From Selenomonadales bacterium (GTDB lineage: Bacteria; Bacillota; Clostridia; Christensenellales; QALW01), in NCBI GenBank assembly GCA_003150515.1, contig QALW01000044.1, forward strand, positions 5,838 to 69,837: a DNA stretch of 64,000 nt, given 5' to 3'. The translations under genes were made by a program, and so were the position numbers. Positions 7,529 through 44,706 of the stretch are shown here, piece after piece. A model generated the notes under the pieces. That model ran no database searches and was not told the DNA's origin. It saw nothing but the letters and a program-made list of their open reading frames with translations. The first letter of the stretch is position 1. Each line of letters opens with the position of its first letter.

Positions 7529-7712
7529 CGCCTGAAATGAAGCAGCATTGGCGGCCTTTGATTAAAGGGAACCAACGCCTGAAATGAAAGAGGGCAGGAG
7601 GCTTGCGCAAATGGAGCGGGCGCCTGAAATGAAAGAGGGCAGGAGGCTTGCGATAAAGGGGACGGGCGCCTGATATAAAAGAGGGCCGGCGGCCTGCGAA
7701 TTGAGGGGCGGA
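7529..7712. repeat. four tandem copies of a 45-47-bp unit (CGCCTGAAATGAAAGAGGGCAGGAGGCTTGCG...)
   Basis: Units start at 7529, 7576, 7621 and 7667. Units 2 and 3 are identical over their first 32 nt, and the outer units are diverged. Confidence 0.85.
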
Positions 7713-19271: not shown

Positions 19272-19613
19272 CCCCGGGAGTATGAATAGCGCCGGGAAAA
19301 CGGGGGCGCGGGCGGGGATGCGTTAATGGACGCGCAGAAATAAGCGCATTTAGGGAGCTTAAACCGCGTGATTGATTAAAAGGACGGGGCAGGGCTCAAT
19401 AAGGGCGCGTCCGTTTTGGCTGCGTAAAGCAAGCCAAAACTCCTATAAAGGGCGGGGCGCCCCCAAAATGGGCAGGAGTTTCTGTTTTAAAGGCGGAAAA
19501 TCAGCGCGGCAGGCTCAAAGAGCGGCGGTAAATACGCTGGGATAACGCTTGGGGCAGTCTTAAATAAGATAATTGAGAGCAGCATTGCGCTGGAAAAGGA
19601 CGGAGGTAAAAGA

Positions 19614-21765: not shown

Positions 21766-24480
21766 TTATTCTTTAACCAGTCTGTAGCTGTATTCCGCTT
21801 GGGGTTCGCCCGAATGCTCGACGTTAAAGGTTAATTCGTACCAACCGCTTTGGGCGTTATAATAGGTTTGCCAGTAATCGTTGCCCAGATAGGACTGATC
21901 TATTTTAGTCCATTGTCCGTCTTTAAGAGTTTCCAGCCTGTAGCCCGAATAGGAGGGCACGTTGGTAAAGGTAAGGGGTATATAGCTTATGCCGCCCTTT
22001 ACAGTAATCTGGGCGAGCACGTCCTGAGCCTGGACGCATTTAACCTCAATGGGGTATTGGCGGGTAATTTCTCCCAGCTCCGCCCAGGCGTGGATTTTGC
22101 CGCCCATAGCGTAGCGGTAGGCTAATTTCCAGGTGTTGAATTCCTCTGCGGGTATGCTTTTAATTACGGGGCTGTCAAAATAGAAGCTGGAGAGGGATAT
22201 GGGCAGATTGATATATTCCACGGCGCCCCGGACCGTGCTGCCCGCCTTGATTACATTTCCCGCTTCGGCCGGGGGGCAGAGCTCCACCAGGGTGGAATTG
22301 CCGCAGAACATCTCTGTGCTGCGCAGATTAAAGGCGGGCTTGGAATAGTTTTTTCCGTTCAGCTCCGCTTCAAAGGACAGCAGATTGAGCATGCGGTTGG
22401 CGGTTTTGGCGTCAAAATAGTCTGAATTGATTTTGGTATAGCTGTCGGTAAAGGCAATCCACATTCCTTCTCCGGGCACATCTATGCGCTGCATGCCGTT
22501 TGAGCCTATATAGCCCGCCGTGTCATACACGGGGATTTCTGCTTCCGCGCCGTAGGTTTCTCCGGCTATGGTATATTCAATAGGGCCGTCGTCATTTCCT
22601 ATGGTTATGCCGTGCCAGCGGCCGCTGTTATGGTTATCCGCGCCCAATTGATAAAAGGCCATTCTTTCAAAGCTTACGTCCTTAACAAAGCGGTATTCAA
22701 AAATATGAGTGGCGCGGGAGACGTCGTTGGTGCGGCCGAGATAGGTTTTCAGAGTAAATTCCACGGCGTTGTCCTTGGTTATACCGGTAAATATAACCTC
22801 GGCGAGATTGGGCGCGTAATTTTTATAAAAAACTCTTACGTTTTTAAAGCCTACTATGCCTGAGGTATTTGTTCCGTCCTTGCCGTAATATAGGAAATTG
22901 CCTCCGCCGTTATTGGTGCCCCAGACGTATTCCTGGCCTTGGTCAAAGGGATCAAAGCCCACGCCGCGGACATCGTTAATAAAGGCCAAGCCGCAGGTCT
23001 GGTCGGGGTCATAGCAGAAGGCTTCTCCGCTTGAGCCAATGGTGCTGGTCTGCCAGACTTGATGCGTGCTGTAGGCCGGCCAGCCAATCAGGCAAAGCTG
23101 GGCGTGGCTGGCCACGTTTACGGTACCCCAGTTATTAAAGGCGTTCATATATTCGTAGGTAACGCTGGAATTGGCGGGCACCTCCAGATAGGTATATCCA
23201 TGGTACCAGGAGCCGTCCAGGCCTTTATACCACTGCGCTTTAGTTACCGAGCTGTCAAATGGGTGCCAGTTCTTGGATATCTGTATGGGCACGCCCAGCG
23301 GCTCGCCCGTGTCGATATCCCTCAGCATCGGGCCGAAGCCTTCTACGGCGAAGGCGCCGCTTTTTTCAAACATTAGGGGAACGGTTATTGTTTGCTCTGA
23401 GGGGTTCTGGATGGTGAAGCTTACTCTGTCGCAGGCGTTTTGGTTTTGTTCCTGGGCAAAGGCCGTGCCCTTAGCGCTGACCATGCGGTTTGTATTCATA
23501 ACCCAAACGCCTCTGTCCGCGTCAAATTGCACAGGCACTTCTCTTCCTTCCCGCGGAGCGATCTGGCTGGCGCTGATATTTAAAGAGGCTATGGCGTTAT
23601 ATTGCTCGATATCCGCTTGGGATGGGGAGACGCTGGGAATGATTATAGCGCCGAAGCCCTGAAATTCATATTGTTTGAGGGATATTCCCGAGCAGCTCAT
23701 AGTGAGGGTTTTTGAGGCCTGTTCATAGGAGAGGGAGGCGTTCTGGCTGGGCAGTATAATTGAAAGGCCGGAGCCGTCCGGGGCCTTGAGAATTATTTCC
23801 CGTCCGTTCTGCGAGGGCGAGCCGGTCATCTCTTCTGAAAATTCGAATGAATAGGTGAGGGTTGCGTCTGCAATATCATGCTGGGCAAAAAGCTGAAAAT
23901 TAAGCGCAAAATACTCCGGCAGGGCTTTAATTTCCGTACGGCCTATAAAGCTGTTTGTGCGTTTGCCGGAAGAATCTGCAAAAATCATGGCTGCGGCGTC
24001 AAAGGATTGCATATACTGGCCTGATTCTATTATCCGCATATTGATTGTATTGTATTGCGCGGGCTCTATGATATCTGTGAAAACATATTCGTCGTCGTTT
24101 ATTTTTACCGAACTGAAAGTGCTTACCTGAGGCAGGCTGTTTATAACCGAGGCATTTTGAGTCATAACTTCGGACTGGCTGTATTCATCTTTCAAGGCGC
24201 CTATTCGGTTTATCATTCCGTTAGAGCCGTTGACGCTTATTCCGTAATAGCCTGTTTGGACAAAAAATTTATTATTCGGGGCGGTGCCCGTTCCTTCGGG
24301 CCACCAGGAGTATGCATAATCTCTTACGTCGGGCTGCTGGGAGTAAGTATTGCCTACATAGGGGTTTAATTCGGAGCCTTGTTCGGGTGAAACGCTGGGA
24401 GAAGGCGAAGGGTTATCGGCGCATGAGGCCAGGGAGAGACCTATTGCTCCGGTGAGCAATAATACGGCGACTTTTTTCAT
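21766..24480 (-). CDS. large secreted lipoprotein of unknown function
   Basis: 904-aa ORF. Lipoprotein signal MKKVAVLLLTGAIGLSLASC followed by a PSPSPS linker. No recognisable catalytic motif. Confidence 0.85.
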   Translation of the reverse strand: MKKVAVLLLTGAIGLSLASCADNPSPSPSVSPEQGSELNPYVGNTYSQQPDVRDYAYSWWPEGTGTAPNNKFFVQTGYYGISVNGSNGMINRIGALKDEYSQSEVMTQNASVINSLPQVSTFSSVKINDDEYVFTDIIEPAQYNTINMRIIESGQYMQSFDAAAMIFADSSGKRTNSFIGRTEIKALPEYFALNFQLFAQHDIADATLTYSFEFSEEMTGSPSQNGREIILKAPDGSGLSIILPSQNASLSYEQASKTLTMSCSGISLKQYEFQGFGAIIIPSVSPSQADIEQYNAIASLNISASQIAPREGREVPVQFDADRGVWVMNTNRMVSAKGTAFAQEQNQNACDRVSFTIQNPSEQTITVPLMFEKSGAFAVEGFGPMLRDIDTGEPLGVPIQISKNWHPFDSSVTKAQWYKGLDGSWYHGYTYLEVPANSSVTYEYMNAFNNWGTVNVASHAQLCLIGWPAYSTHQVWQTSTIGSSGEAFCYDPDQTCGLAFINDVRGVGFDPFDQGQEYVWGTNNGGGNFLYYGKDGTNTSGIVGFKNVRVFYKNYAPNLAEVIFTGITKDNAVEFTLKTYLGRTNDVSRATHIFEYRFVKDVSFERMAFYQLGADNHNSGRWHGITIGNDDGPIEYTIAGETYGAEAEIPVYDTAGYIGSNGMQRIDVPGEGMWIAFTDSYTKINSDYFDAKTANRMLNLLSFEAELNGKNYSKPAFNLRSTEMFCGNSTLVELCPPAEAGNVIKAGSTVRGAVEYINLPISLSSFYFDSPVIKSIPAEEFNTWKLAYRYAMGGKIHAWAELGEITRQYPIEVKCVQAQDVLAQITVKGGISYIPLTFTNVPSYSGYRLETLKDGQWTKIDQSYLGNDYWQTYYNAQSGWYELTFNVEHSGEPQAEYSYRLVKE

Positions 24481-24582
24481 AATATTTCTCCTTCATAATT
24501 TAATTGCAATTATTATAAGCAATTTAAAAGCGGAATGTCAATATGGAAGTTTATTTTTTTATTTGGCGGCGGCATCCCGCCC

Positions 24583-24914
24583 GTTTCTCCGCAGGCGCTT
24601 AAGCGCCTGCGGAGAAACAATAATGAGGCCGGCCTAGGCCGGCCGCTCTGTCCGCGGCCCATGTCCGCCGCGGACAGAGCTTTTATATAGAGCCCACCCG
24701 CGCCGCTGAGAGACGCTGGGAAGGAGCAGCGAACGGTGGCCGGGGGCGGGCGGGAAAGATAAAGGGCGCCGGGCGCAAATTATGCGCCCGGCGCCGTGCG
24801 GCTTAAGCCGCACACATTTTATGCCCCAACTGGCGCCAGAGGGTTTCCTCTGGCGCCAGTTGGGGCCGTCCGGCCATCAGCCGGACGCGGGTGGGTTAAG
24901 CCCCCGCATAAAAT
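24583..24914. repeat. array of seven back-to-back perfect or near-perfect hairpins plus dispersed-repeat modules
   Basis: Hairpins at 24583..24618, 24627..24644, 24645..24680, 24765..24795, 24796..24813, 24824..24865 and 24868..24886. An outer inverted repeat pairs 24816..24824 with 24906..24914. Confidence 0.9.
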
Positions 24915-24935: not shown

Positions 24936-25646
24936 TTATTTCAGGCTATTAATATATGCTAGTTCTGTTGAATTTAATTCACGGTATGCCCCAGAAGATA
25001 ATTTGCCAAGATTAATATTTCCTATGCGTATACGCATAAGGCTGAGAAGTTCTTTATCTATTGCTTCAAGCATCTTGCGCACCTCTCTATTACGTCCCTC
25101 GTGTATTGTAATAGAAAGAGTAACCGTGTGCTGCGTGCCCCCTGTTACTGACACTTTAGCGGGAGCGGTAGTAATGGTTTCCTCTATTTGCACGCCTCGT
25201 TCCAGTTTTAATATGTCCCGGCGGTCGATTTCGCCTTTTATAACGGCCAGATATTCCTTTTCTATTTCATATTTAGGATGAGTGAGCCGATATGCGGCAT
25301 CGCCGTCGTTAGTTAGCAGAATTAAGCCGCTGGTATTATAATCCAGACGGCCGACAGGATAAAGCCTATAAGGCAAATCAATAAGCTGGGTGACGGTAGG
25401 CCGCCCCTCAGGGTCGCTGGATGTGCTCATGACCTTTTCTGGTTTATTGAGCATTATGTATACATTTTTGGATTCTGCTTGCAGAATTTTCCCATCCAGT
25501 TCAACCTGGTCTGAAGGAGAAACAGTGGTGCCCAGCTGGGTGGTTATCTCTCCGTTTACCTTAACTCTGCCCTGAAGTATATATTCTTCGCATTTTCTGC
25601 GGGAGGCTGCGCCGCAGCGAGCCATATATTTTTGCAGTCGTTCCAT
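24936..25646 (-). CDS. rluB: pseudouridine synthase, RsuA/RluB family (S4 domain plus catalytic domain)
   Basis: RLQKYMARCGAASRRKCEEYILQGRVKVNG; GRLDYNTSGLILLTNDG. Confidence 0.88.
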   Translation of the reverse strand: MERLQKYMARCGAASRRKCEEYILQGRVKVNGEITTQLGTTVSPSDQVELDGKILQAESKNVYIMLNKPEKVMSTSSDPEGRPTVTQLIDLPYRLYPVGRLDYNTSGLILLTNDGDAAYRLTHPKYEIEKEYLAVIKGEIDRRDILKLERGVQIEETITTAPAKVSVTGGTQHTVTLSITIHEGRNREVRKMLEAIDKELLSLMRIRIGNINLGKLSSGAYRELNSTELAYINSLK

Positions 25647-25885: not shown

Positions 25886-26094
25886 GGCGCGCCCTCCTTT
25901 AAAGGGCGGGGCGGCGTTGTATTAATTAGGAAAGCAAAATTATACAGCGGGGGCTCTTGCCCGCCCGTTTTTTCTGCCTAACGGCCGAAAAAACAATAAT
26001 GAGGCCGTGCTTAGCACGGCCGGCAGTTCAGCTGCGCGCGGCCCATGTCCGCCGCGCGCAGCTGAACTGCTCTTTATATTTCCCGCCCGCCCCC
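25886..26094. repeat. dispersed-repeat copy: CCTTTAAAGG box, AACAATAATG module, short hairpin, long CCATGTCC-loop hairpin, CTTTATATTTCCCGCCCGCCCCC module
   Basis: Box at 25886..25916; hairpins at 26003..26021 and 26023..26070; tail module at 26071..26094. Confidence 0.9.
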
Positions 26095-26104
26095 TTTAGG
26101 CGTC

Positions 26105-33333: not shown

Positions 33334-34001
33334 TTTTTACCTCCATTTCGGCTCTCATAGGATGCCATATATTGGTTAGAATTATGTCAGCTTTTTTGGC
33401 ATGCGGGCGTGCCCGTCCCGCTGCCTGTGCTGATTTTATTTATTATATATCTTTCGCCGCTATTTCGCAAGCGGTTTTTGCCGTAAGTCCCGGAGAATGC
33501 CGCGAAGCGCGGGGCGCGGGCGGGGTTATGTAAAAAAAGGCGAGGAGAGCGGCCGGCGCGGTTTAGTGCCGGCCGCGCAGCCGGGAAGAGAGAATAAAGG
33601 ATGTAAAAATTTTTTGCTGGAGAGTAAGATGAATTTATTCGCCTGTCCCCGACGAAGGAGGGGACACAATTAAAGGGTGGGCGCCCCGCCCTCAATGTGG
33701 GCGCAGCTCATATCCATTCTCAGACAGGCTGTTTGCATATTTTTTCTTTTATATAATCTTCCCCTGTTTCGTTTGCGCCCATGCCCTTGGCCCTTGGGGC
33801 CGTCGGGCATATATATGTCTTCCCGCCCGCGCCCTGGCGCGTTTCCGGAGCTGCATGCAAAAATCCGAGGCACATTTTTCAGTATGCGCATACAAGCAAT
33901 GGTAGACTAATAATGAAACTAACGCCGTGTTCCGCGCATATAAGCGCCGGCGGGCTTAAATTAATATGCGGAGCTGTTGCCAGGCTGCCGTTTAAGGGGG
34001 T

Positions 34002-34490
34002 GTGCCTTTGCGAAAAAAGAAATTAGATACTCATATCAGTCCGCGGCTGAGCGAAATAAGCCAGGCTCGCTGCCGCGGCGCCACGAAAAAGGAAATAGCC
34101 GAGCTGCTGGGAATTTCTCTGGCGACTCTGAATAGGGCCCAGCGGGAGAATGAGGATTTGGCCCTTGCTCTCAGGCCGGTGCCTGCGCAGGAGATGGAAC
34201 GTGAAAAAATAAAAGAAGCGTTTCTTAAGCGCGCCTGCGGCTATATAGCCCGCGAAGAGGTGCGTGAGATGCGTGAAAATAAGCTGCCCGACGGCCGGGT
34301 GGAGCGTGAATTGGTATTGACAAAGCTGGTCAGCAAAGAGGTGCCGCCCGATCTTTCCGCCGCTAAATGGCTGCTGGAAAACGAGCAGAAGCGCGCGAAT
34401 CATGCTCAGCCTAATGAAATCGATTTGGATGAGGCGCTGGAAATGCTCCGGCTGCGCCAAAGGCTCTTAGAGCAAGCGGAGGAGGAATAA
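34002..34490 (+). CDS. terminase small subunit-like HTH protein
   Basis: HTH KKEIAELLGISLATLNRA and a KEVPPDLSAAKWLLENE motif typical of TerS proteins. Start is GTG at 34002 or TTG at 34008, which has better RBS spacing. Confidence 0.7.
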   Translation: MPLRKKKLDTHISPRLSEISQARCRGATKKEIAELLGISLATLNRAQRENEDLALALRPVPAQEMEREKIKEAFLKRACGYIAREEVREMRENKLPDGRVERELVLTKLVSKEVPPDLSAAKWLLENEQKRANHAQPNEIDLDEALEMLRLRQRLLEQAEEE

Positions 34491-34493
34491 TTT

Positions 34494-35909
34494 ATGGAGC
34501 GGGACGCCGTTTCGGCTATAGAACGCCTTATTAATCAAAACCCTCCTCTTTTTAAACTGGCCGGATATAACGCTCTGGGCAAGACTCATCAAAAGCAAAT
34601 GGAATTTCATAAATGCCTCAAGCGCAACCGCTGGGTGTTTGGAGGCAACCGCACGGGCAAAACTGAATGCGGGGCGGTAGAAGCGGTATGGTTCGCGCGC
34701 GGCAACCATCCGTATAGGGAGATTAATAAGCCCATGAACGGCTGGGTGGTCAGCCTTACCGGGGAGGTGCAGCGGGATGTGGCCCAGGCCAAGCTTTTAT
34801 CCTATCTTCCCCGAAACTGGATAGAGGAAATAGTAATGAAAAAAGGGCGCTCGGACAGCCCGGAAAACGGAATTATAGATTTTATAACTGTGCGCAGCGT
34901 GCACGGCGGGCTTTCCACTATAGGCTTTAAGAGCTGCGATCAGGGCCGGGGCAAATTCCAGGGCACATCCCAGGATTTCATCTGGTTTGACGAAGAGCCG
35001 CCCAGGGATATCTATGACGAATGCCGCATGAGGCTTCTGGACAGGCGGGGAGAAATTTGGGGCACAATGACTCCGCTTATGGGGCTGACATGGGTGCATG
35101 ACGATATATATATGAATTCGCGCTCCGATTCGGAGGTCTGGTATATAACGATGTCCTGGCAGGACAATCCCTTTTTAAATCCCGACGAAATCAGGCTTAT
35201 GGAAAGCGTGCTGCCCGACAGCGAGCTGGAAAGCCGGCAATACGGCAGGTTCCGCGCCGCAGGCGGCATGGTGTATCCCGAATTTGACGAGCGCGTGCAC
35301 TGCATAGAGCCATTTGACGTCCCGCCCGAATGGCAGAGCTGCATTTCAATAGATCCTGGTTTTGTCAATCCTCTCTCCGCTCACTGGTACGCCGTGGACG
35401 GAGACGGAAACATCTTTGTTATAGCCGAGCATTACGCCGCGGGGCTGTCGGCTGAGGAACACTGCCTGAGGATCAGGGAAATAAGCGAAAAACTGCATTG
35501 GAAGAAGCTTCCGTCGGGACATGTCCAGGCGCTGATGGACAGCGCCTGCCTGCAAAAGACTCTTTCAGGGCCCCGTTCCGTAGCCCAGCTTTTTTATGAG
35601 AACGGCGTAAGCGTGAATACGCGGGTGGATAAGAATGTTTGGACGGGCGTCCAGCGGGTTAAAAGCTATTTAACAAAGCGGGAGGGGCGTCCGGGCCTGT
35701 TTATCTTCAAAAACTGTCCCGAAATGATACGGGAAATAAAGGGATACCGTTACGGCGAGGGAGAAAGCCCCGTAAAAAAGGACGACCACGCTATGGACGA
35801 ATTACGGTATTACATTATGTCCAGGCCTGAGCCCGCCGTTTTTAAGCCGCCCCAAAGCAGTATTGTACAAAAGGATTTGCTGAGGCTTATGAAAAGACGC
35901 CGGCGCTGA
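34494..35909 (+). CDS. terminase large subunit
   Basis: Walker A GGNRTGKTECG, Walker B FIWFDEEP. Nuclease motifs IDPGFVNPLSAHWYAVD and DDHAMDELRYY. GAGGAGG RBS. Confidence 0.9.
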   Translation: MERDAVSAIERLINQNPPLFKLAGYNALGKTHQKQMEFHKCLKRNRWVFGGNRTGKTECGAVEAVWFARGNHPYREINKPMNGWVVSLTGEVQRDVAQAKLLSYLPRNWIEEIVMKKGRSDSPENGIIDFITVRSVHGGLSTIGFKSCDQGRGKFQGTSQDFIWFDEEPPRDIYDECRMRLLDRRGEIWGTMTPLMGLTWVHDDIYMNSRSDSEVWYITMSWQDNPFLNPDEIRLMESVLPDSELESRQYGRFRAAGGMVYPEFDERVHCIEPFDVPPEWQSCISIDPGFVNPLSAHWYAVDGDGNIFVIAEHYAAGLSAEEHCLRIREISEKLHWKKLPSGHVQALMDSACLQKTLSGPRSVAQLFYENGVSVNTRVDKNVWTGVQRVKSYLTKREGRPGLFIFKNCPEMIREIKGYRYGEGESPVKKDDHAMDELRYYIMSRPEPAVFKPPQSSIVQKDLLRLMKRRRR

Positions 35910-36193
35910 CGGGCCGAAAGAGTAATTGGCCGCGCTTGGAAAAAATATCGCCGGGCAAACGCTGAGACGCCCGGGGGCGCGGGCGGGCAGAGCCCTGGAG
36001 TTAAAATGGCGCATGTCCGCGCCATTTTAACTCCAGGGCTCGTAATATAAAAGGCGCGGTTAAAGGCTTTTGGGAAGCAGGTTTAATGCTTTTGCTGAGA
36101 AAACGGCGGAAGCAGACAAGCGTTTTGGCGCGCCGTTCCGCGGAACGCGGGACACAATTAAAGGGTGGGGCGCCCCCGCTCTAGAAAGAAAGG

Positions 36194-38080
36194 ATGATGG
36201 ATTTGTTTGATTCGGAAAAAGAGAAGGAGCAGGCCGAACAAAGACGAAAAAAACAGCTTTGCGCTATGGTCAGGGAGGAATTTGAGCGCCGCGCCGTGCA
36301 GCGCCGTCCATTCGAGCTTCAGTGGCAGCTCAATATGAATTTTATGCTGGGCAATCAGTATTACGACATAGCTCCCTTGTCGGGCGAGCTTTTTGAAACC
36401 GTTCAGGAATATCCCTGGCAGGAGCGGGAGGTGTATAACCATATAGCTCCCATAATGGAATCCCGCTTGGCCAAATTGACAAGAGTGCGTCCTCAGATGC
36501 TTGTCCGTCCGGCCACTTCAGACGAAGCGGACGTTCAGAGCGCAAAGGTATGCACGGCCTTGGTCAAATCCTGCTTTTCCAGGCTGGCCATGACTGATCA
36601 ATTGGACGAAGCGGCCATGTGGTCGGAAATTTGCGGCACGGTTTTTTATAAGAGCGTTTGGTCAGATTCAAAGGGCGTTCCGGTCGCGACTAATGAAAAC
36701 AGGCAGGTGCGTCAGGGAGACATAGAAACAAGCGTATGCCCGCCTTATGAAATATATCCTGATTCGCCCGGCCGCGAGGACGTGTCCAGATGTGAAAGCC
36801 TAATACATGCGCGGGCCTATTCTCCGGGCGAAGTAGAACGGCTCTGGGGCGTCAGGCCGGAGGGCGGCAAGGTCAGGGTTTACGGCGTTTCGGCTGAAAA
36901 CGGCAGCCTCATGCCCGGAACAGCCGAATTGGAGGATGGAGTCTTAGTAACTGAATACTATGAAATGCCCTCGGCGGAATATAAAAACGGCCGTCTGCTG
37001 ATAACCTGCGGAGATATGCTTCTATATGAAGGGGAACTGCCCTATCAGACGGGAGAAAATGGAGAGAGACGCGCTCCTTTTGTCCGGCAGGTCTCCCTTT
37101 CCCGTCCCGGCTGCTTCTGGGGCATGTCCATAATTGAACGCTGCATTCCTATTCAAAGGGCTTATAACGCCGTTAAAAACCGCAAGCATGAATTTCTCAA
37201 CAGAGCGGCGGTGGGAGTGCTGGCCGTGGAAGAGGGCTCGGTGGATTTGGAAAATCTCGAATTGGAAGGGCTGGCGCCCGGCAAACTGCTGGTTTACCGT
37301 CAGGGCAGCAATATTCCTGCGTTTTTGCCGGGAGGGAATCTGCCTGGCGAGTTTATTCAGGAAGAGGCCGAACTGCTTCAGGAATTTGAGATGATTTCGG
37401 GCGTGTCCGAGATGATGAGGCGCTCGTATGCCGGAGCTAATATAAGCAGCGGCACGGCGCTTTCCCTTTTAAGCGAGCAGGACGACACCAGGCTTTCAGT
37501 TACCGCCGAGCATATACGCTCGGCCATGCGTTCTCTGGCTAAAATCTGGCTGCGGCTGTATAAGCAGTTTGCTGGAAGCGCCCGCATAGACCGGGTAGTC
37601 GGGGATAACGGCCAGGTCAGCGCGCTCTATTGGAAGGCCAGCCAGATAACCAGCGACGACGTAGTGCATGAAACTGAGAACGAGCTTTCTCAGTCCTTGT
37701 CTCAGCGCAGGCAAATGATATTCGATTTGATAGCCAGAGGCATATTTACTTCGCCTCAGGGAGGCCTGAGCGAACGCACAAAGGCGCGCCTGCTCGGCAT
37801 GCTGGGCCTGGGCGACTGGGAAAACGCGGCGGATGTGCCTGAAATGCAGATGGAAAGGGCGCAGCGCGAGAATTTCCGCATGAGCGAGGGAGAAACGGCA
37901 GTAGTTGAAAATTACGACGACCATGAATTGCATGAATCAGAGCATATTAAATTTATGCTGTCCGAAAAATTTGAAGAACTGAGCGCTAAACGGCCTGATT
38001 GGGCCGCCCTGTTCAGGGAGCATTTAACGGAGCATCAGATTTTATTAAATGGAGGAATGCAGAATGCGGACGAATCTTAA
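36194..38080 (+). CDS. portal protein
   Basis: 628-aa ORF directly after TerL. Its size, acidic character and position are portal-like. No clip-motif check is possible by eye. Confidence 0.7.
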   Translation: MMDLFDSEKEKEQAEQRRKKQLCAMVREEFERRAVQRRPFELQWQLNMNFMLGNQYYDIAPLSGELFETVQEYPWQEREVYNHIAPIMESRLAKLTRVRPQMLVRPATSDEADVQSAKVCTALVKSCFSRLAMTDQLDEAAMWSEICGTVFYKSVWSDSKGVPVATNENRQVRQGDIETSVCPPYEIYPDSPGREDVSRCESLIHARAYSPGEVERLWGVRPEGGKVRVYGVSAENGSLMPGTAELEDGVLVTEYYEMPSAEYKNGRLLITCGDMLLYEGELPYQTGENGERRAPFVRQVSLSRPGCFWGMSIIERCIPIQRAYNAVKNRKHEFLNRAAVGVLAVEEGSVDLENLELEGLAPGKLLVYRQGSNIPAFLPGGNLPGEFIQEEAELLQEFEMISGVSEMMRRSYAGANISSGTALSLLSEQDDTRLSVTAEHIRSAMRSLAKIWLRLYKQFAGSARIDRVVGDNGQVSALYWKASQITSDDVVHETENELSQSLSQRRQMIFDLIARGIFTSPQGGLSERTKARLLGMLGLGDWENAADVPEMQMERAQRENFRMSEGETAVVENYDDHELHESEHIKFMLSEKFEELSAKRPDWAALFREHLTEHQILLNGGMQNADES

Positions 38081-38642
38081 TGGGGAACAACCCGCCAATA
38101 GCGCGGGCTCCGATATAATGCCTGACAAATTCAAAAGCGGGGAACAACTTCTTAAAGCCTATGAGATGCTGGAAGCCGCGTTTACGCGCAAAAGCCAGAG
38201 GCTTAAGGAGCTCCTTGAAGAAAATGCCAGGCTCAAGGGGGAACTTATGGAGAAACAGCCGGATTTAAGCGGTATGATTGAGGATTTTAAGGCTTATCCG
38301 GAGGGCGCGCAATATGCGCCCGGGCTTTCGGCTGTTCTTCAGAGCGAGCCCAATCTTACGCCGGCCGGGCTGCTTGCGGCTCTGGCGCGCGTAATCCGAT
38401 GCGAGTGCGTTCCGCGCGAGCAGCTTTTACAAGACCGCGAATTTGTAGAAAAATATGTTCTTACAAATGAGGATATAACAGAATATATTCTGCGGAAATA
38501 TCTTGGCGGGCTGCTGCGCGGAGAAACGCCCCGCAGCATAAGCGGCGCGGGCGGCTTTATGCCTGCCTGCGAACGCAGGCGCGCTTCTTCTATTGAGGAA
38601 GCGGGCAAAATGGCGGCGCAGAGCTTCAGCGGCAGGCGCTGA
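38064..38642 (+). CDS. probable scaffolding protein
   Basis: 192 aa, coiled-coil-rich (KSQRLKELLEENARLKGELMEK), located between portal and capsid. The ATG has a GGAGGA RBS and overlaps the portal 3' end. Confidence 0.45.
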   Translation: MRTNLNGEQPANSAGSDIMPDKFKSGEQLLKAYEMLEAAFTRKSQRLKELLEENARLKGELMEKQPDLSGMIEDFKAYPEGAQYAPGLSAVLQSEPNLTPAGLLAALARVIRCECVPREQLLQDREFVEKYVLTNEDITEYILRKYLGGLLRGETPRSISGAGGFMPACERRRASSIEEAGKMAAQSFSGRR

Positions 38643-38788
38643 CCAATTAAATAGGGTTTATACCGGGGCGCGGCACAAAGCGCGCATGAGTATGCAATGA
38701 TGCCGTTGACAATACGGTTTAAAGAGCTTTTATCTGCTTCGCGCCCCTATATAAGCCTGATAAAATAATTAACGGAGGAGATAAAAAT

Positions 38789-39979
38789 ATGCAGGCAGTA
38801 ACTTTAACAAGCGCTGAAAACGCCCTTAAGTCATTTTATCTTGACGTAGTGGCGCATCAGCTTAATACGGAAACCAATCCCTTGTATAATAAGATTAAGC
38901 AGTCGGAGAGCAATGTGTTCGGCAAGGAGGTGCGCGCCGCGGCATGTTACGGCGTAAACGGCGGCATAGCGGCCGGAACGGAAACCGGAGATCTTCCCGA
39001 AGCATATTCAAATAACTATGTGTCCTTTGTAAGCACGCTTAAGAATCTGTACGGTCAAATTGAAATCTCGGATAAGGCTATTCGTGCCTCTGAAAACAGC
39101 GCGGGAGCGTTTGTGAATCTGCTTAACGCCGAGATGGAGGGGCTTCTGAGAGCGGCTAAATTTAATTTTGGGCGCATGCTTTTTGGAGACGGGACGGGCG
39201 CTCTTGCAAAGGTGACTGAGGCTGCGAGCGCTAAGAGCGCTATTGTGGTAGACAGCGCGCGCAATCTGACCGAAGGCATGGTAATAGATATTTATGCTAC
39301 GTCCGAAACTGCTTCGGCTACGGCGAGCGGCTGCCGGATTCTCGGAATTGCTGTGGAAAAATCCGAAAGCACTTCCAAAATAGTCGTTACTCTGGACACT
39401 ACTGTTACGGTAGCGGCTAACAGCATAGTGTATCTTTGCGGCAGCAAGGGCAATGAAATCACCGGCTTGGCTTCAATTTTCTCTGCAACCGGCACCCTTT
39501 ACGGCTTGGATAAATCAAGCAATAAATGGATGATTCCTTATATTGGTGATAATACGGGCACAATAAGCGACGCTAAAATACAAAAGGCCATTGACGCGGC
39601 CGAAGAGCGCGCGGGCAGCCGAATAGATACGGCTGTTTGCTCTTATGGCGTCAGAAGAGCTTATGCGAGCGTTCTGGAGACTAATAAGCGCAATGTGAAT
39701 ACGGTTGAATTGGAGGGCGGCTTTAGGGCTATATCCTATGCCGGCATTCCTATAATCGCCGACAGATTTGCGCCTGCGGGCACTATGTATCTGCTGGACA
39801 GCAAGGATTTCGCGCTTCATCAGCTTTGCGATTGGCGCTGGCTGGAGGGTGAGAACGGCAATATACTCCGTCAGGTACCGGGCAAGGCGGTATTTAACGC
39901 TACTTTGGTTAAATATGCCGAGCTTATGTGCACTCGTCCGGGAGGACAGGCTGCGCTTACGGGCATAACTGAAGGCTGA
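38789..39979 (+). CDS. major capsid protein (HK97-fold type)
   Basis: 396 aa with a strong GGAGGAG RBS and the typical position after the scaffold. The sequence pattern (NLYGQIEISDKAIRASE...NAEMEGLLRAAKFNFGRMLFGDG) resembles phage coat proteins. Confidence 0.72.
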   Translation: MQAVTLTSAENALKSFYLDVVAHQLNTETNPLYNKIKQSESNVFGKEVRAAACYGVNGGIAAGTETGDLPEAYSNNYVSFVSTLKNLYGQIEISDKAIRASENSAGAFVNLLNAEMEGLLRAAKFNFGRMLFGDGTGALAKVTEAASAKSAIVVDSARNLTEGMVIDIYATSETASATASGCRILGIAVEKSESTSKIVVTLDTTVTVAANSIVYLCGSKGNEITGLASIFSATGTLYGLDKSSNKWMIPYIGDNTGTISDAKIQKAIDAAEERAGSRIDTAVCSYGVRRAYASVLETNKRNVNTVELEGGFRAISYAGIPIIADRFAPAGTMYLLDSKDFALHQLCDWRWLEGENGNILRQVPGKAVFNATLVKYAELMCTRPGGQAALTGITEG

Positions 39980-40378
39980 TTGACTGATTGAGCTGCGGTG
40001 GGGACGGGGAAGGCCGTTTAGGGCGCATTTGCGCCCTAAACGGCCGGGGTTTATATAATTTGGGCGCGGGGAAGAGTTCTGGGGGCTGATAAAAGCCTGT
40101 AAAATATCAGAAGCAGGGCGGGTTGAGGCGGCTGGGGGCGCCCTCCTTAAAGGGGTGGGAGTCCCCGTTGCTGATGCCGCGGGGGCCCGCCCGCCCTTCC
40201 CGGTCTGGCAATAAGCATTTAAAAAATGCTTATTGCCAGACCGGGAAGCAAGGAGGCCGGCTGACGCCGGCCGGGCGGATGGGGAAAGCAAAAGCTTTCC
40301 CCATCCGCCCTTTTATATAATTCCCCAGGGGCGCTTTAGGCGCCCCTCCCCCGCGCATAAAAGAAAGGGAGAGATCAA

Positions 40379-40690
40379 ATGGCTAAAGAGGGAGAGTATT
40401 GTATGGAATTAAGTCCTGAATTTCGGGACGTGTTTTATATTGCCGGTCGTATTAAGGAGCTGGATCCAGCTTATTATATTATGTTCAACAGAAACAGCGG
40501 CCGTTATCAGGTGCACGCCGGAACTGGGCGGGATACCCTTCAGCTTGATTTGCCCTTTGATATCCTGGACAGCCGTGCTCTTAGTTATGTCCGGCAGACG
40601 GCCGTAACGCGCATTAATGAATATTTGGCTGAAATAGACAGGGCGAATCTTATTAATGAGCGCGCGGCGCTTAAACGAGGAGGAATCTAA
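40379..40690 (+). CDS. hypothetical protein (phage block)
   Basis: 103-aa ORF with an AAGGGAGAG RBS. An alternative ATG lies 8 codons downstream. Confidence 0.55.
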   Translation: MAKEGEYCMELSPEFRDVFYIAGRIKELDPAYYIMFNRNSGRYQVHAGTGRDTLQLDLPFDILDSRALSYVRQTAVTRINEYLAEIDRANLINERAALKRGGI

Positions 40691-41260
40691 ATGAAATTAA
40701 GAGAATTGGCTGCGGGCTGCGCCGTGCTTTTGGGAATAGACGACGGCTTTCTGCGCGAGGGCGGAGTTATGACCGAGGACGAGCAGCTTGTATATGAACG
40801 GCTTAAAAGCGCGCTGAATTCAGTATATACGTTTATCGCAAAGGATTATTGCCGGCCTCTTTATACTGAAGTAATAACAACGGATGCGAAATCGGGCGTG
40901 CTTATAAGCGAATTGAGCAAAAGCTATATGCAGTTTCATTCGGCTAAAAATGAAAAGAGCTGTCCTGTGGCGGGCAGAGAATATCCCGATTATGTACGCT
41001 TCAGCGTGCGCCCGGGCAGCAAGGTGAGCGTAACGTATTATTATCTTCCGCCTCGCCTGGAGGATTTGGACGACGAGGTGGAGCTGCCCGAAAAGGATGT
41101 GGCTGCCGAAGCCTATCTTTACGGCGCTTTAAGCCTGTATTATACCACCGAGGGCCGTCATACCGAGGCTGCGGCCTGGGACAGAAGATATAAAAGCGTT
41201 CTGGACGGAACAGAAAGAATGCGCGGCGAGCATCGCCTTCCCAGCCGGAGGTGGTCTTGA
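40691..41260 (+). CDS. hypothetical protein, size and position of a head-tail adaptor
   Basis: 189 aa with a GAGGAGG RBS, abutting the stop of the previous gene. Confidence 0.6.
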   Translation: MKLRELAAGCAVLLGIDDGFLREGGVMTEDEQLVYERLKSALNSVYTFIAKDYCRPLYTEVITTDAKSGVLISELSKSYMQFHSAKNEKSCPVAGREYPDYVRFSVRPGSKVSVTYYYLPPRLEDLDDEVELPEKDVAAEAYLYGALSLYYTTEGRHTEAAAWDRRYKSVLDGTERMRGEHRLPSRRWS

Positions 41261-42741
41261 TGGCGTGGTATCGCAGCCTGCCTGAATATGAGCAGGCGGA
41301 CGAATACAGTTTTTATATCAGCGATTTTAAGGGCGGCATCAATATGAGCGAGGACGACCAGAATATGAGCCTGAGCGAAAGCCCGCTGGCTTATAATGTT
41401 TCGGGCAAGGACGGCAGTCTTAAGAGGTGCGAAGGATACGGACGCGCCTATAAGCATGAGGATATGCTTAATAGAGAAATTCTGATTCCCGAATTGCCGT
41501 CGTCCGGTACGGGCAGGCTGCTTATTTACAGAGTCAATACTGAAACTCAGCCGCGCGAGCATTTGGCGTATGTGGATAATCTGGGGCTGTATAAATGCGT
41601 TCTTAACGGTTCAGAGCTTAAATGGCAGATGGTGAATACTACTGATTTCAGTGCTGTGGAATATTATGTAAATTACCGCAAGGATTCGGGCGACTGTCTG
41701 GTATTTGGTCCGGGCGTAGAGGACAATAATATGTATCTATGGAGTAAATTTACACAGCCGCCCTCTCCTGTTGAGACCGCGCCCCAATTAAGCAGCGCTG
41801 TGGTTCATTATGAGCGCATGTTTGGGGTTGGAGATCCGGAGCATGTAAACCGCATATGGTTTTCCGCGCAGTTTGACCCTACGGATTTTACAGTTTCTCT
41901 TGACGCGGGCGGCTATATAGACGTTATGGGGGATAAAGGCCGGGCGCTTAAGGTGATTAGCTTTTCGGACAGTATTTTTGTGTTCTGGCAGTACGGAATA
42001 ACCAGGGTAAAAGCCTATAATTATCAGAGCGAATTTACCGTAAGCGATATATACAGCTGCGACAGCGAAATACTCAAGGACAGCGTGTGCCTATGCTCAG
42101 ATCAGATTATATTTGCCGCTAAGGACGGCGTTTATGCCTTTGACGGTTACAGCGTACAGCGAATCAGCGATAAAATCTCAGGCATAATTAACGAGGGCCT
42201 GAAGGCTTCGGGCGAATGCTCGGCGTATTTCCGCGGCAAATATTATTTGTCTGTGCAGAGCAGCTATCTAGCCGAGGTGGAGGGCAGCCTGATGCTGGAA
42301 TATGATACGGCTTCAAATAAATGGCGTATTTTTAAGGGCCAGCCCATACGGCAGCTTCTGGTCTATCATGACGAGGGACGCGAACGCCTGCTGCTTGTGG
42401 GGAACAATCACGTCTATGAAATGGACGGCTCTCAAACTTTCGGCGGCATGCCCATAAGCGCAAGATGGGATATGCCCTTAAGCAGCCTGGGCAAGCCTCA
42501 TTTAGTCAAGAATATCCGCGAGCTGCTTATAACGGCTGAGGGCGAGGGGCTTTTAAGGCTGAAAATGACTACTGAAAGCGCCCGAATTGAAAGGACAATC
42601 CGCTTGAGGGATACGCGCAGGATATATAAGGTGCCTCTGCGAATCAGCGGGAAGCTGCTCCAGCTGAGCATAGAGAATGTGAGCGGCAATAATTTCACCG
42701 TCAGCAATCCCATGGTGATATATACCGCGCTCAGGGGGTGA
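41260..42741 (+). CDS. hypothetical structural protein (candidate tail-tube/nozzle-like)
   Basis: 493 aa. The ATG overlaps the upstream TGA (TGATG) and has a GGAGGTGG RBS. The sequence is rich in beta-strand, propeller-like repeats. Confidence 0.6.
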   Translation: MAWYRSLPEYEQADEYSFYISDFKGGINMSEDDQNMSLSESPLAYNVSGKDGSLKRCEGYGRAYKHEDMLNREILIPELPSSGTGRLLIYRVNTETQPREHLAYVDNLGLYKCVLNGSELKWQMVNTTDFSAVEYYVNYRKDSGDCLVFGPGVEDNNMYLWSKFTQPPSPVETAPQLSSAVVHYERMFGVGDPEHVNRIWFSAQFDPTDFTVSLDAGGYIDVMGDKGRALKVISFSDSIFVFWQYGITRVKAYNYQSEFTVSDIYSCDSEILKDSVCLCSDQIIFAAKDGVYAFDGYSVQRISDKISGIINEGLKASGECSAYFRGKYYLSVQSSYLAEVEGSLMLEYDTASNKWRIFKGQPIRQLLVYHDEGRERLLLVGNNHVYEMDGSQTFGGMPISARWDMPLSSLGKPHLVKNIRELLITAEGEGLLRLKMTTESARIERTIRLRDTRRIYKVPLRISGKLLQLSIENVSGNNFTVSNPMVIYTALRG

Positions 42742-42748
42742 GAGCTTT

Positions 42749-43168
42749 ATGACGAGCAATGCGGTAACGCGCAATACCAAGCGTATTTTAATGCTTAATG
42801 AGGAGCTCAATGAACAGAGAGGCATGATAAACGCCTTTTTGAATCCCCGCAGCTATTCGATAGCCTCGGCTTCCCTTTTGTCCACCGAAAGCGAGCTTTT
42901 CAGCCTTAACGCCAGCGGCGCGTATGCGCTTTTCGGCTTTTTGAGGCTGCAATTCAATTCCGCTTCGGGACAAATTATTTCGGTCGTATTCCGGGACGCC
43001 CAGGACGGCGCGCTGAGCTCGTGCGTCAGGCAGCTTTCCAGCAACGGAGTTCAGAGCCTGGATATACCTTTCTGCATATATCCCGGAAAGGGACAGGTAA
43101 AAATAAACGCTTCAGCTTCCGCTTCGTGCAGCATATCGGGGGCGGAGCTTTTTATTCTTGGCATGTAA
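42749..43168 (+). CDS. hypothetical protein (phage block)
   Basis: 139-aa ORF with a GGGGGTGAG RBS. Confidence 0.55.
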   Translation: MTSNAVTRNTKRILMLNEELNEQRGMINAFLNPRSYSIASASLLSTESELFSLNASGAYALFGFLRLQFNSASGQIISVVFRDAQDGALSSCVRQLSSNGVQSLDIPFCIYPGKGQVKINASASASCSISGAELFILGM

Positions 43169-43231
43169 TAAGCGCGTCCCCCCGCGCGCTCTTAATTAAT
43201 ATTTCCGGGGGGAGAAAGCAGGGATTATTAA

Positions 43232-44491
43232 ATGAGCAAAAGCAAACAAGGCCAGTATATTGTCCAGCGCGGAGATACTGTAGAAAGCATAGCTAAAAAG
43301 CTGGGCATGTCTCCCTTTGCTCTGGTCAGCCAGAATCCGGGAATCCGTTCTCAGCGGCTGACGCAGGGCCAGAGTTTGGTATATTATAGCCCGTCCTCCC
43401 AGGCTAATACGAGCGGGCAGTCCTCTTCTTCAGACGCCGCCCAAAACGCTTTGAATATTTTAAACGGCGCTCTGGGCGCCGGAGGAGGCGCATTGAGCAA
43501 TCTGTCTCTTAAGGCCGATACATTGGAAGAAGCGCTTCAGGCGCTTAAGAGAGAGGCGGGGCTTTCCGGTTTGAGCGATGAGGAGGCGTATGAAAGAGCG
43601 CAGCAGTTCAGGCGGCAAAACCTTCTTGAACAGGCTTCTCAGGCCAATCCGGGCAAGGTTTATGATATAGGCAAGCTGCTGGATAACGCCGGTTACGGCC
43701 TTTCGGATTCGGCAAGACAGATTATAAGCAATATTACAGGCATGGATTATTCGGGCGCTGCGGCCGGCTCTGAGGCAAATCTCAGCAGCAGGGACAGAGC
43801 GCTTCTGGCGCTGGGCGAATTGATTGATTTAACTAATCTTTCCCCTGTCAAAGGCGAGCAGATAGATGAAAACGCCCTCTATCGGCAGGCTTATGCCCAA
43901 GCGGAGAATGATTATGCAAATCGTATTCTCAACGCCGTCAATTCCCTTAATAATAAGCGCAGAAATAATCAGGACAAAAAGGAAACTCTTCAGGAGGATT
44001 ATTTAAAGGAAATACAGGAATTGGAGGCGCAGGCGGAGGAGGACAGCGCCGACGCATTGCAGGACAGCATAAAGAGAGGCACGGCGCGTTCCAGTATTCT
44101 GGACGGACTGCAAGCGGAAATAGAGCAAAACAGCCAGGACAGCGCGCTTCAGCTTGAAACTGACCTTAACAATACTCTTTCCCGCCTGGACAGGGAATTG
44201 AAGGATATTGAAAGCGCGGGTAAGGCTACGCTGGATTTGCTGGAAAAGAATAAGCAGATTGCGGCGCAGAAAGAATATGAAAAGCAGCTTGCCAATATTC
44301 AGAAGGAGCAGGAAAAGCTTTCCAGCATAAACGCCGGCTTGACAGGCACGCTGCTCACTCCCAGCGACGCCGTCAAGCAGCTTAATAAGCTGGACAGGCA
44401 GCAGTCTCTGGATTATCTTAAAAAGAATGAAAAGAAACTGCGCAGCCTTTGGGGCAGCTCCTATGACAGCGTTCTTAAGCAATATTCTTAA
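43232..44491 (+). CDS. LysM-domain protein with a long coiled-coil C-terminal region
   Basis: N-terminal LysM YIVQRGDTVESIAKKLGMSPFALVSQNPGIRSQRLTQGQSLVYY. The rest is Q/E/K/L-rich with no catalytic motif seen. Confidence 0.75.
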   Translation: MSKSKQGQYIVQRGDTVESIAKKLGMSPFALVSQNPGIRSQRLTQGQSLVYYSPSSQANTSGQSSSSDAAQNALNILNGALGAGGGALSNLSLKADTLEEALQALKREAGLSGLSDEEAYERAQQFRRQNLLEQASQANPGKVYDIGKLLDNAGYGLSDSARQIISNITGMDYSGAAAGSEANLSSRDRALLALGELIDLTNLSPVKGEQIDENALYRQAYAQAENDYANRILNAVNSLNNKRRNNQDKKETLQEDYLKEIQELEAQAEEDSADALQDSIKRGTARSSILDGLQAEIEQNSQDSALQLETDLNNTLSRLDRELKDIESAGKATLDLLEKNKQIAAQKEYEKQLANIQKEQEKLSSINAGLTGTLLTPSDAVKQLNKLDRQQSLDYLKKNEKKLRSLWGSSYDSVLKQYS

Positions 44492-44504
44492 ACAGCATAG
44501 TCTT

Positions 44505-44533
44505 AGTCCGGGAATATTTCCCGGACTTTTTTT
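44505..44533 (+). terminator. intrinsic terminator closing the phage-derived block
   Basis: AGTCCGGGAA / TTCCCGGACT stem followed by T7. Confidence 0.85.
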
Positions 44534-44552
44534 AATTTTAACGGAAAAATGT

Positions 44553-44582
44553 TTGCATTTATGCTGAAAAATATATTATAAT
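44553..44582 (+). promoter_or_regulatory. promoter of the small membrane/zinc-ribbon gene
   Basis: TTGCAT, 18-nt spacer, TATAAT (44577..44582). Confidence 0.5.
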
Positions 44583-44706
44583 ATCTTTGAAAATAATAAC
44601 GTGGCTTTATTTCCCGGACATGGGCTTTTGACGTGCGCTTAAGGCGCGCGGACGCGGCGATTAAAAAGAAGCTTATGTATACGGAATAACGCCTGAAAGG
44701 AATCAA

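Follow-up and report, generated by a model that had tools for sequence, protein, structure and literature searches.

Stacked hairpins with conserved linkers and changing stems at gene ends of uncultured gut Clostridia: a family of intergenic units and candidate two-way terminators

What is a run of abutting perfect hairpins doing between two genes, and how do its stems stay perfectly paired? The question is raised by a stack of hairpins at positions 24583-24914 of a 64,000-nucleotide stretch of contig QALW01000044.1 (assembly GCA_003150515.1), the whole of which was analysed and is referred to here as the window. The stack is composed of two copies of one repeat unit, A and B, which are arranged head to head and have relatives elsewhere in the window and in sister species. 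The explanation that we consider best, with a probability of about 0.5, is that this clade-specific unit dimer acts as a two-way terminator or insulator and protects the 3' ends of mRNAs, its stems being kept paired by template switching.

A preliminary description of this DNA, made from the letters alone, had reported seven perfect hairpins stacked back to back. All seven exist and lie at or within 1 nt of where it had placed them, with stems of 18, 9, 14, 13, 9, 20 and 8 bp (Table 1). In 500 dinucleotide shuffles the stack gave a mean of 0.16 perfect hairpins of at least 8 bp (maximum 2), against the seven observed. The whole window holds 26 perfect hairpins of at least 9 bp (3.05 in shuffles), and 12 with stems of at least 13 bp (0 in shuffles). 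Hairpins that abut another hairpin make up 46% of those in the window, compared with 8% in a control set of 1.17 Mb fetched from 78 other Clostridia genomes.

The chance that the stack is an assembly or sequencing artefact is vanishingly small. Assemblies do break inside these hairpins, one (L003) ending within the first hairpin of the stack and another (L101) carrying a run of Ns at the hairpin 40012-40045; breakpoints of this kind, as contig ends or as N-runs in scaffolds, are seen within the hairpins at the end of L003, at about 7232-7265 of L101 and at the ends of L098 and L103. However, the 455-nt spacer that contains the stack is identical base for base in three independent human-gut metagenome assemblies, and more than 15 other assemblies, which come from different studies and were made with different assemblers, carry it with point differences, so the stack is not an artefact of assembly. 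For the hairpins themselves that reading is already refuted; it keeps some weight only for the loop orientations, which are taken from short-read assemblies.

Each unit is approximately 135-170 nt long, has three to four hairpins, and follows one order: a G-rich head, an A-rich tract, the hairpins H3 and h2, a T-rich linker, the hairpin H1, an optional hairpin h0 and a G-rich tail. The head has the G-rich consensus GGGGGCGGGCGGG followed by the A-rich AAAKATAAAG. H3 combines a conserved apex (GCGCGGC-GGAYATGG-GCCGCGC) with a variable outer stem, and its loop GGAYATGG is fixed in sequence and orientation in every copy, whereas flips are seen in other loops. Among the hairpins of the family h2 (GGCCGGC-N-GCCGGCC) is the best conserved; it is followed by the T-rich linker (WCATTATT and variants) and by H1, where a conserved base (GTTT..AAAC) closes a variable interior; in unit A the linker TCATTATT and the GTTT base of H1 together form a U-rich tract 3' of h2. 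The short conserved extra hairpin h0 (CGTCCGGC..GCCGGACG) is present in units B and E, and the tail (GGGCGGG) is often itself a small bulged hairpin. The hairpins had been described as having unrelated stems, which holds for the long stems; the hairpins are nevertheless joined by conserved linkers and are parts of one repeated unit, and both the linkers and the dimer architecture had been missed. A pair of sequences thought to enclose the last hairpins (ATTTTATGC/GCATAAAAT) is present in the window; of this helix L005 has only a 6-bp T/A run left and L004 nothing. Because it is kept in just one of these two other species, the pair is probably not a conserved feature, and it is excluded from the unit.

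A covariance model (CM R1) built from ten unit copies matches seven units in the window (A, B, C, D, E, G and Z, at 35-127 bits) and an eighth, F, 8 kb beyond it, as well as further copies in sister species; over the 1.17 Mb of the 78 other genomes it has no match. The units make up a multi-copy family, confined in this search to a small group of uncultured gut Clostridia. Further stacks had been listed at 170-304, 26003-26070, 35990-36041, 40012-40347, 45142-45270 and 52219-52324, all of which are real and intergenic; five of the six are members of the unit family and the other, 35990-36041, is a solitary H3-like hairpin. The suspicion that this is not a described family also stands, the whole window giving no Rfam match at the gathering threshold and, in a search by E-value, generic hairpin matches only, far below threshold. 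A scan for tRNA and tmRNA gave no match. Scanning metagenomes with the pattern GGCCWCATTATTGT-N-ACGGGYGGG returned nine loci, of which two are chance matches and seven belong to units A, C and D, as orthologues or as copies in other strains; this pattern is therefore too narrow to sample the family. The same kind of scan of viral contigs with the head motif had no match. The units lie on both strands of a region of uniform GC skew and show no replication-strand bias.

Table 1. Coordinates of the hairpins, units and neighbouring features (window positions unless a contig is named; bits and E-values are those of CM R1)
Feature	Positions	Strand	Stem or score	Details
Unit A	24570-24705	-	116.6 bits, E 1.5e-22	Direction of the flanking genes; on the minus strand: head GCGGGTGGGC + TCTATATAAAA, H3, h2, linker TCATTATT, H1, tail GGGCGGG
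H1 of unit A	24583-24618		18 bp	Perfect palindrome without loop; base GTTT..AAAC conserved, interior hypervariable; orthologue interiors differ
T-rich linker of unit A	24619-24626	-		TCATTATT; invariant in orthologues of A, C and D
h2 of unit A	24627-24644		9 bp	Perfect; GGCCGGCCT, AGGCCGGCC
H3 of unit A	24645-24680		14 bp	Perfect, loop of 8 nt; apex GCGGC-GGACATGG-GCCGC (minus strand) conserved, outer stem hypervariable
Head of unit A	24681-24705	-		GCGGGTGGGC, then A-rich tract TATATAAAA
Central spacer between heads of A and B	24706-24739			Present in all three species
Unit B	24740-24907	+	69.4 bits	Model match 24740-24879; antisense to the flanking genes; on the plus strand: head GGGGGCGGGCGGGAAAGATAAAG, H3, h2, linker ACATTTTAT, H1, h0, bulged tail hairpin
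H3 of unit B	24765-24795		13 bp	Perfect; on the minus strand CTTTATCTTT then follows, terminator-like
h2 of unit B	24796-24813		9 bp	Perfect; GTGCGGCTT, AAGCCGCAC
H1 of unit B	24823-24866		20 bp	Perfect (19 bp in the preliminary description); hypervariable between species; loop flipped in some sister-species strains
h0 of unit B	24867-24887		8 bp	Perfect; CGTCCGGC..GCCGGACG
Tail hairpin of unit B	24887-24907			Eighth hairpin, bulged; GCGGG-T-GGG TTAA GCCCCCGC; minus strand holds the recurrent CCCRCCCGC
Unit C	25954-26096	-	107.8 bits	Sense direction; orthologues in L004, L005
Unit D	52192-52322	+	126.7 bits	Divergent intergenic region upstream of the ileS operon; orthologues in L085, L089, L090
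Unit E	45128-45296	-	45.7 bits	With h0; antisense to flanking plus-strand genes
Unit G	40184-40336	-	58 bits	25-bp H1; after a capsid-like gene; loop flipped in L099
Unit Z	84-252	-	35 bits, E 2.5e-5	Diverged copy
Solitary H3-like hairpin	35990-36041		23 bp	Loop ATGTCC; between terminase-like and portal-like genes
Sigma-70-type promoter of the lipoprotein gene (904 aa)	24512-24541	-	12/12 matches	TTGACA, 18 nt, TATAAT
Loop flip AAA/TTT, H1 of unit G	40221-40223			L099
Loop flip AAA/TTT, H1 of unit E	45187-45189			L100 and L102, two samples of one lineage
Loop flip TTT/AAA, H3 of unit F				
Loop flip GAA/TTC, H1 of unit B				Gallicola-like lineage
Loop flip TTTAC/GTAAA, H1 of unit C				
Hairpin stacks, L028	1994-2230, 3285-3411, 7626-7772			Contig positions
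Hairpin stacks, L029	1-66, 2018-2131, 3129-3245			Contig positions

Around the units a second motif, approximately CGCCCCGCCCTTTAAAGGAGGGCGC, occurs at 82-112, 19440-19465, 25887-25915, 36160-36185, 40135-40165 and 52365-52395. It lies 40-70 nt beyond the tails of units C, D and G and is inverted beside Z, and the unit may be part of a larger module that includes it. The motif CCCRCCCGC (with TATA-rich sequence) is found at, e.g., 238, 24693, 25708, 33516, 33822 and 52558, and is present outside recognisable units too. An intergenic region of about 650 nt common to three species (33334-34001 of the window, 1220-1890 of L004, 1500-2140 of L005) carries variable perfect hairpins in conserved sequence; the open reading frames (ORFs) 33387-33695 and 33781-34026 match nothing in Pfam and are unlikely to be genes.

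How old the units are can be judged from related species. The host is an uncultured gut Clostridia species whose nearest representatives are Candidatus Neochristensenella gallicola (L004) and UMGS1037 (L005), their RluB proteins being 92% and 90% identical to that of the window species, compared with at most 62% for the next relatives. Units A and B together, C and D are found at the same loci in L004, L005, L085 and L089. Between these species the four-fold degenerate sites of the flanking genes are near saturation (identity 0.39-0.66), yet the heads, linkers and tails of the units keep 80-86% identity and the arms of h2 86%. The variable arms of H1 and H3, in contrast, are no more alike than shuffled arms, and differ in length too. 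Pairing is retained throughout: in a ten-sequence alignment 96.2% of stem cells form standard pairs, 20 of the 31 pairs have changed on both sides, and G-U occupies only three cells. None of 500 shuffles reaches these values, and sliding the partners by 1-3 columns leaves 36-44% paired. For comparison, to see if perfect pairing is a property of the whole genome, canonical terminators provided a single orthologous pair, which is imperfect in L005.

The units are inherited vertically at fixed sites, and purifying selection acts on h2, on the linkers, which are single-stranded, on the H3 apex and on the H1 base. Because the linkers are conserved and the stems are randomised yet still paired, despite near-saturated synonymous sites, the architecture must have been under selection for a long time, with the helices bound only to pair. 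The comparison of orthologous intergenic regions, which had been proposed as a check on the stacks, extends to strains, among which one (L116) is without unit B. Between hom and htpG, L004 has extra hairpins at 4840-5028 (e.g. GGCGCCCCGCA tat TGCGGGGCGCC) that are not in the short orthologous spacers of the window and L005, evidently a lineage-specific gain or loss.

Hundreds of assemblies contain these loci, and strain-level copies, gathered by exact look-ups of window proteins and RluB alleles, catch the stems and loops in the act of changing. Five exact loop flips segregate within species (Table 1). Three point changes each add one pair to a palindrome, turning the h0 loop from TGATG to GAT, the apex of H1 in unit B from AAAC to AA, and the h2 loop in unit D from GGCA to GGCC. 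In L114 and L115, H1 of unit A is represented by an allele in which five stem positions have changed, all five being mirrored in the other arm, and the loop differs too; strains with the two alleles of this hairpin show 4.4% divergence at third codon positions. Single-arm mismatches are found as polymorphisms and are nearly absent between species. There are also deletions between short direct repeats: L094 has lost one arm of a 22-bp hairpin, and L116 (4351-4582), a strain of the gallicola-like lineage, when set against L104 (4351-4787), has lost unit B and the spacer (205 nt) between 7-nt direct repeats AGCAGCG, with unit A kept. Some 5 kb past the right end of the window, L095 (15943-16190) holds a nested structure of 250 nt with a minimum free energy of -234 kcal/mol, in which a 24-bp outer and a 17-bp inner inverted repeat surround five perfect hairpins; in L094 a 39-nt deletion in this structure takes one arm of the 22-bp hairpin.

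The published signatures of template switching within hairpins are inverted loops, compensation over several bases and lengthened stems (Monttinen and Loytynoja, 2022, PMC8794818; Lavi et al., 2018, PMC5941160). Since the flips, the paired multi-base changes and the stem extensions seen here match these signatures, we infer that the hairpins form in DNA and that arm-to-arm copying apparently keeps their stems perfect. Such template switching would take place at the DNA level inside each hairpin during replication, rather than through slow two-step compensatory mutation, and a change in one arm would be either erased or copied to the other. By arm-to-arm copying stems could therefore diverge in sequence and length yet stay paired, drifting to unrelated sequences and lengths that would still be perfectly Watson-Crick. 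The earlier suggestion that perfect palindromes are actively generated is supported in this sense, through template switching within the hairpin, and not through a transposase.

The position of the units suggests what they do. The stack lies between two minus-strand genes, adjoining on one side the stop codon of an rluB-type pseudouridine synthase gene (24936-25646) and on the other the start of a gene for a 904-aa lipoprotein (21766-24480). A perfect promoter stands directly past the stack, which we count toward the terminator reading, and it is also kept in L004 and L005. In the window species the stack follows rluB (24936) directly; in the sister lineages a glycerate kinase gene (L004 10714-11850, L005 10713-11843), which the window species does not have, lies between the two. 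All units except D, i.e. seven of the eight, begin 20-81 nt past a stop codon, between co-directional genes; H3 of unit C starts 35 nt past the stop codon of an AMP-binding enzyme gene, and the first perfect hairpin of unit E in the reading direction lies 67 nt past a stop codon. In the window, units and canonical terminators (a hairpin and a U-run) occupy alternative gene ends.

The block of H3 and h2 is preceded on the 5' side by an A-rich tract and followed on the 3' side by a U-rich (T-rich) one. These brackets have the geometry of a bidirectional intrinsic terminator, and the unit would therefore work in either orientation. Scanning with consensus sequences, we found that the reverse complement of H3 followed by CTTTATMTTT, and h2 followed by TCATTATTGT, make terminator-like sites in opposite directions, with 12 such sites observed and 3.2 expected. 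The linkers vary in sequence between copies and keep their T-richness, with 5-8 T in the 12 nt after h2, as would be expected of a U-tract more than of a site recognised by its sequence. Termination of transcription by hairpin clusters close to stop codons has been reported (Gupta and Pal, 2021, PMC8355165). The function that these features make most likely is that of a two-way hairpin-cluster terminator or of a protector of 3' ends, and in the A and B dimer one terminator would then follow another in the space that separates the rluB operon from the promoter of the gene downstream. The terminator or insulator role that had been offered among several possibilities for the stack is thus plausible.

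Several observations weigh against this combined account of termination and template switching. The U-rich tracts are interrupted and weaker than those of the canonical terminators of this genome, H1 is without a U-tract in either direction and its role is not obvious, and the site of unit D is a divergent promoter region rather than the stretch behind a stop codon. A simple terminator would need neither the strong conservation of the G-rich unit ends nor the fixed orientation of the H3 loop, which suggests a sequence-specific partner. On the side of template switching, the loop flips come from short-read metagenome assemblies, for which perfect palindromes are a known hazard; countering this, final k-mers are usually longer than these stems of 10-25 bp, and the flips go with strain lineages. 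The five-pair allele of H1 in unit A could have been imported by recombination from a diverged lineage. TATAAA in the unit head was considered as a -10 promoter box and dropped, as there is no -35 element and a promoter scan did not support it. G3 tracts are present, and a G-quadruplex formed across the unit from the G-tracts of head and tail is speculation.

Of the other explanations, the most credible is that the units are a non-autonomous element, of the type of repetitive extragenic palindromes (REPs), bacterial interspersed mosaic elements (BIMEs) and REPINs or of palindrome-associated transposable elements (PATEs), still moved in trans by a Y1 transposase encoded elsewhere, be it a REP-associated tyrosine transposase (RAYT) or the TnpA of IS200/IS605. 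We nonetheless regard it as unlikely. A multi-copy family with shared modules, in both orientations and strictly extragenic, is what mobility would leave, and the family must once have spread by some copying process; h0 starts with CGTC, the tag of one REP superfamily (PMC3733652), L116 is without exactly unit B and its spacer, and the extra hairpins of L004 stand at a site that is empty in other species. Yet orthologous copies are fixed at the same sites in three to four species whose synonymous divergence is saturated, and the unit ends are direct G-rich motifs, with neither inverted termini nor duplicated target sites. In h0 the CGTC pairs with GACG and so is not an unpaired tag, and the deletion in L116, lying between 7-nt direct repeats, looks like replication slippage. 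A RAYT would find no palindrome common to the copies, since each has long stems of its own. Apart from chance matches, orthologues were all that scanning viral and metagenome contigs returned. The preliminary description had raised ongoing transposition and proposed a search for TnpA, RAYT and TnpB genes; neither these nor any other transposase gene was found among the approximately 49 window ORFs checked with Pfam or among the genes in the 10 kb past the right end of the window, and within about 84 kb there is none. A RAYT- or TnpA-driven element is a possible origin of the family; its current activity is poorly supported.

The conserved linkers could instead be recognition sites, together with the H3 loop, of a structured RNA made from the unit strand, either a small RNA gene or a protein-binding cis element, in which the helices would need only to pair. 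The covariation is massive, the H3 loop GGAYATGG keeps its sequence and orientation in all copies, the G-T pairs of the tail hairpin of unit D are conserved in the unit orientation, and the unit strand folds better than its complement, by 5.3 kcal/mol, in 18 of 18 units. That asymmetry, however, is confounded by the G-rich composition of the unit strand, three units out of eight run antisense to the genes beside them, and upstream of the head no promoter can be recognised. Perfect helices of 20-25 bp with almost no G-U are atypical of selected RNAs, and Rfam holds no match; we consider this reading rather unlikely. Among single-arm transitions on the gene-sense strand (n=17), compared as a way of separating selection on RNA from selection on DNA, 11 give G-T and 6 give A-C. 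Recognition might also be at the level of DNA, a cruciform-prone site with G-rich CCCRCCCGC/GGGCGGG being bound by a nucleoid, topoisomerase, replication or uptake protein; BIMEs bind integration host factor and gyrase. In its favour, the window has 17 copies of CCCRCCCGC (about 13 in intergenic DNA), where a rough calculation predicts about one; the hairpins do form in DNA, as the loop flips show, and both orientations are in use. No protein is tied to this motif, though, and a DNA site leaves unexplained both the position after stop codons and the A- and U-rich brackets; it seems improbable. Even less probable is that the palindromes are functionless by-products, made and kept by template-switch-prone replication or repair and tolerated in intergenic DNA. 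Strains do tolerate the loss of an arm or of a whole unit, and in an unrelated Clostridia lineage perfect hairpins that are longer still abut one another and behave alike. The linkers, however, contradict the idea of a purely neutral by-product: together with h2 and the apex of H3 they are conserved far above the level of synonymous sites, and the architecture is kept at the same loci in several species.

That unrelated lineage is represented by two metagenome-assembled genomes of Clostridia from rabbit gut (L028 and L029), in which stacks of abutting perfect hairpins, with stems of 18-43 bp and loops of 2-3 nt, lie directly after rluB. Between the two genomes, the flanks of orthologous hairpins are conserved and their stems are not alike, and in one case the loop is inverted (tgc/gca). 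CM R1 has no match in either and they therefore represent an independent family with the same behaviour; the stacked-hairpin phenomenon may be broader than the unit family.

Other features of the window touch the units less closely. Its housekeeping genes include carAB, glnA, rpsF, ssb, gltBD, htpG, hom, ileS and holB. Between such genes, at 34002-45075, is a cluster of phage-like structural genes (large terminase, P22-like portal, SU10-like capsid and adaptor, LysM protein), which is conserved in all strains fetched, has host-type hairpin units inside it at 35990, 40012-40347 and 45128-45296, and may be a domesticated prophage remnant or a cluster akin to a gene-transfer agent. Upstream of the operon of glnA, an ANTAR-regulator gene and carAB, three tandem copies of a 45-nt repeat (..GGGCGCCTGAAATGAAAGAGGGCAGGAGGCTTGCG..) at 7564-7699 may be leader elements for the ANTAR antiterminator.

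The family belongs to an uncultured but common lineage of human and animal guts near Candidatus Neochristensenella, where CM R1 can be used to annotate gene ends and where the units explain why assemblies break at these places. With conserved anchors, randomised stems, almost no G-U, and flips and multi-pair alleles that are still polymorphic, they offer a clean natural system for asking how long stems stay paired. Should the units prove to be two-way terminators with weak U-tracts, the rules for predicting transcription units in Clostridia would become wider and compact insulator parts would be at hand; a sequence-specific partner, to which the fixed H3 loop and the conservation of the G-rich heads and tails point, would be worth seeking. 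We put forward only tentatively the stronger claim that this is an undescribed class of bacterial non-coding element, whose function would lie in linkers and loops and whose helices would be 'self-proofreading' DNA palindromes left to run free; frequent template switching within the hairpin would both keep them perfect and diversify them at a higher rate than synonymous sites, a process visible here in the loop flips and compensated stem alleles that segregate within species. If this is true, the second lineage (L028, L029) would make such stem turnover a general, overlooked mode of intergenic evolution, and the unit would possibly be a new, U-tract-poor two-way terminator cassette with a dedicated binding partner.

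Among known systems the nearest in lifestyle are REP and BIME sequences. A REP is a palindrome of 20-40 nt with an unpaired GTAG or CGTC tag, by which two superfamilies are distinguished (Di Nocera et al., 2013, PMC3733652). A cognate RAYT gene, in many cases with REPs on either side, belongs to such systems. Like the REP and BIME sequences of Enterobacteria and Pseudomonas, which are GC-rich extragenic palindromes found mostly downstream of genes between co-directional or convergent ORFs, the units are all intergenic, and mostly close behind a stop codon. Like them also, they combine opposite orientations with conserved linker motifs into mosaics, as A and B do, head to head with conserved heads, linkers and tails; the preliminary description was right to see a modular mosaic of extragenic palindromes here. 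REP and BIME sequences are thought to act in termination and mRNA stabilisation. In a REP, however, the palindrome itself is the conserved repeat, whereas the H1 and H3 stems of the units differ wholly between copies and orthologues, only h2 and h0 being semi-conserved, and it is the linkers that are kept. GTAG is absent from the units and CGTC occurs only in h0 of B and E, paired with GACG. The units are also much larger (135-170 nt) and their hosts are Clostridia; with no conserved palindrome and no unpaired tag, they are set apart from REPs. Among the window ORFs and the genes of the next 10 kb there is no RAYT.

Miniature inverted-repeat transposable elements (MITEs) have terminal inverted repeats and target-site duplications and are polymorphic in presence; the units have direct G-rich ends, no duplications and positions fixed across species, and are not MITEs. 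PATEs, derived from IS200/IS605, have imperfect subterminal hairpins at both ends that TnpA recognises, and specific cleavage tetranucleotides; the hairpins of the units are perfect and internal, and no TnpA or TnpB is encoded by the window ORFs. The attC sites of integrons resemble the units in being recognised by structure rather than sequence and in placing short conserved cores around a variable paired centre. They are imperfect hairpins with essential extrahelical bases and R and L cores, which flank gene cassettes and need IntI. The stems of the units are perfect and have no extrahelical bases, there are no cassettes, and the window has no integrase.

Bidirectional terminators built of an A-tract, a hairpin and a U-tract are also known, and the likeness to them and to hairpin clusters is close: hairpins abut within approximately 80 nt of the stop, the 5' side is A-rich and the 3' side U-rich, and function would be independent of orientation. 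GC-rich hairpins begin 20-81 nt after the stop codon, and T-rich tracts follow them, in the 12 nt after h2 and as CTTTATMTTT after the reverse complement of H3, although these tracts are interrupted. Ordinary terminators, in which stems of 5-14 bp are typical and imperfect pairing is frequent, do not form a paralogous sequence family with conserved G-rich ends; for the units, termination is predicted.

In their evolution the units resemble inverted repeats kept by template switching, with perfect stems, compensatory multi-base changes, loop inversions and corrected quasi-palindromes (Lavi et al., 2018, PMC5941160; Monttinen and Loytynoja, 2022, PMC8794818). Those studies inferred rare events over deep phylogenies, whereas here the flips and the five-pair allele segregate within single species, at named loci of one family. 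The units also share with the mitochondrial GC clusters a scatter of GC-rich hairpin modules in AT-richer intergenic DNA. In yeasts and green algae (e.g. Volvox) such clusters and palindromic repeats are organellar, are regarded as selfish and have sequences conserved within families, and they are not known to combine conserved linkers with variable stems. Minute inversions of hairpin loops are known, too, from chloroplast DNA. On present sequence comparisons, then, the units are REP- and BIME-like in lifestyle but fall outside the definitions of REP, MITE, PATE and attC and outside Rfam, and appear to be of the extragenic-palindrome or terminator kind with its logic inverted, the linkers being conserved and the stems running free.

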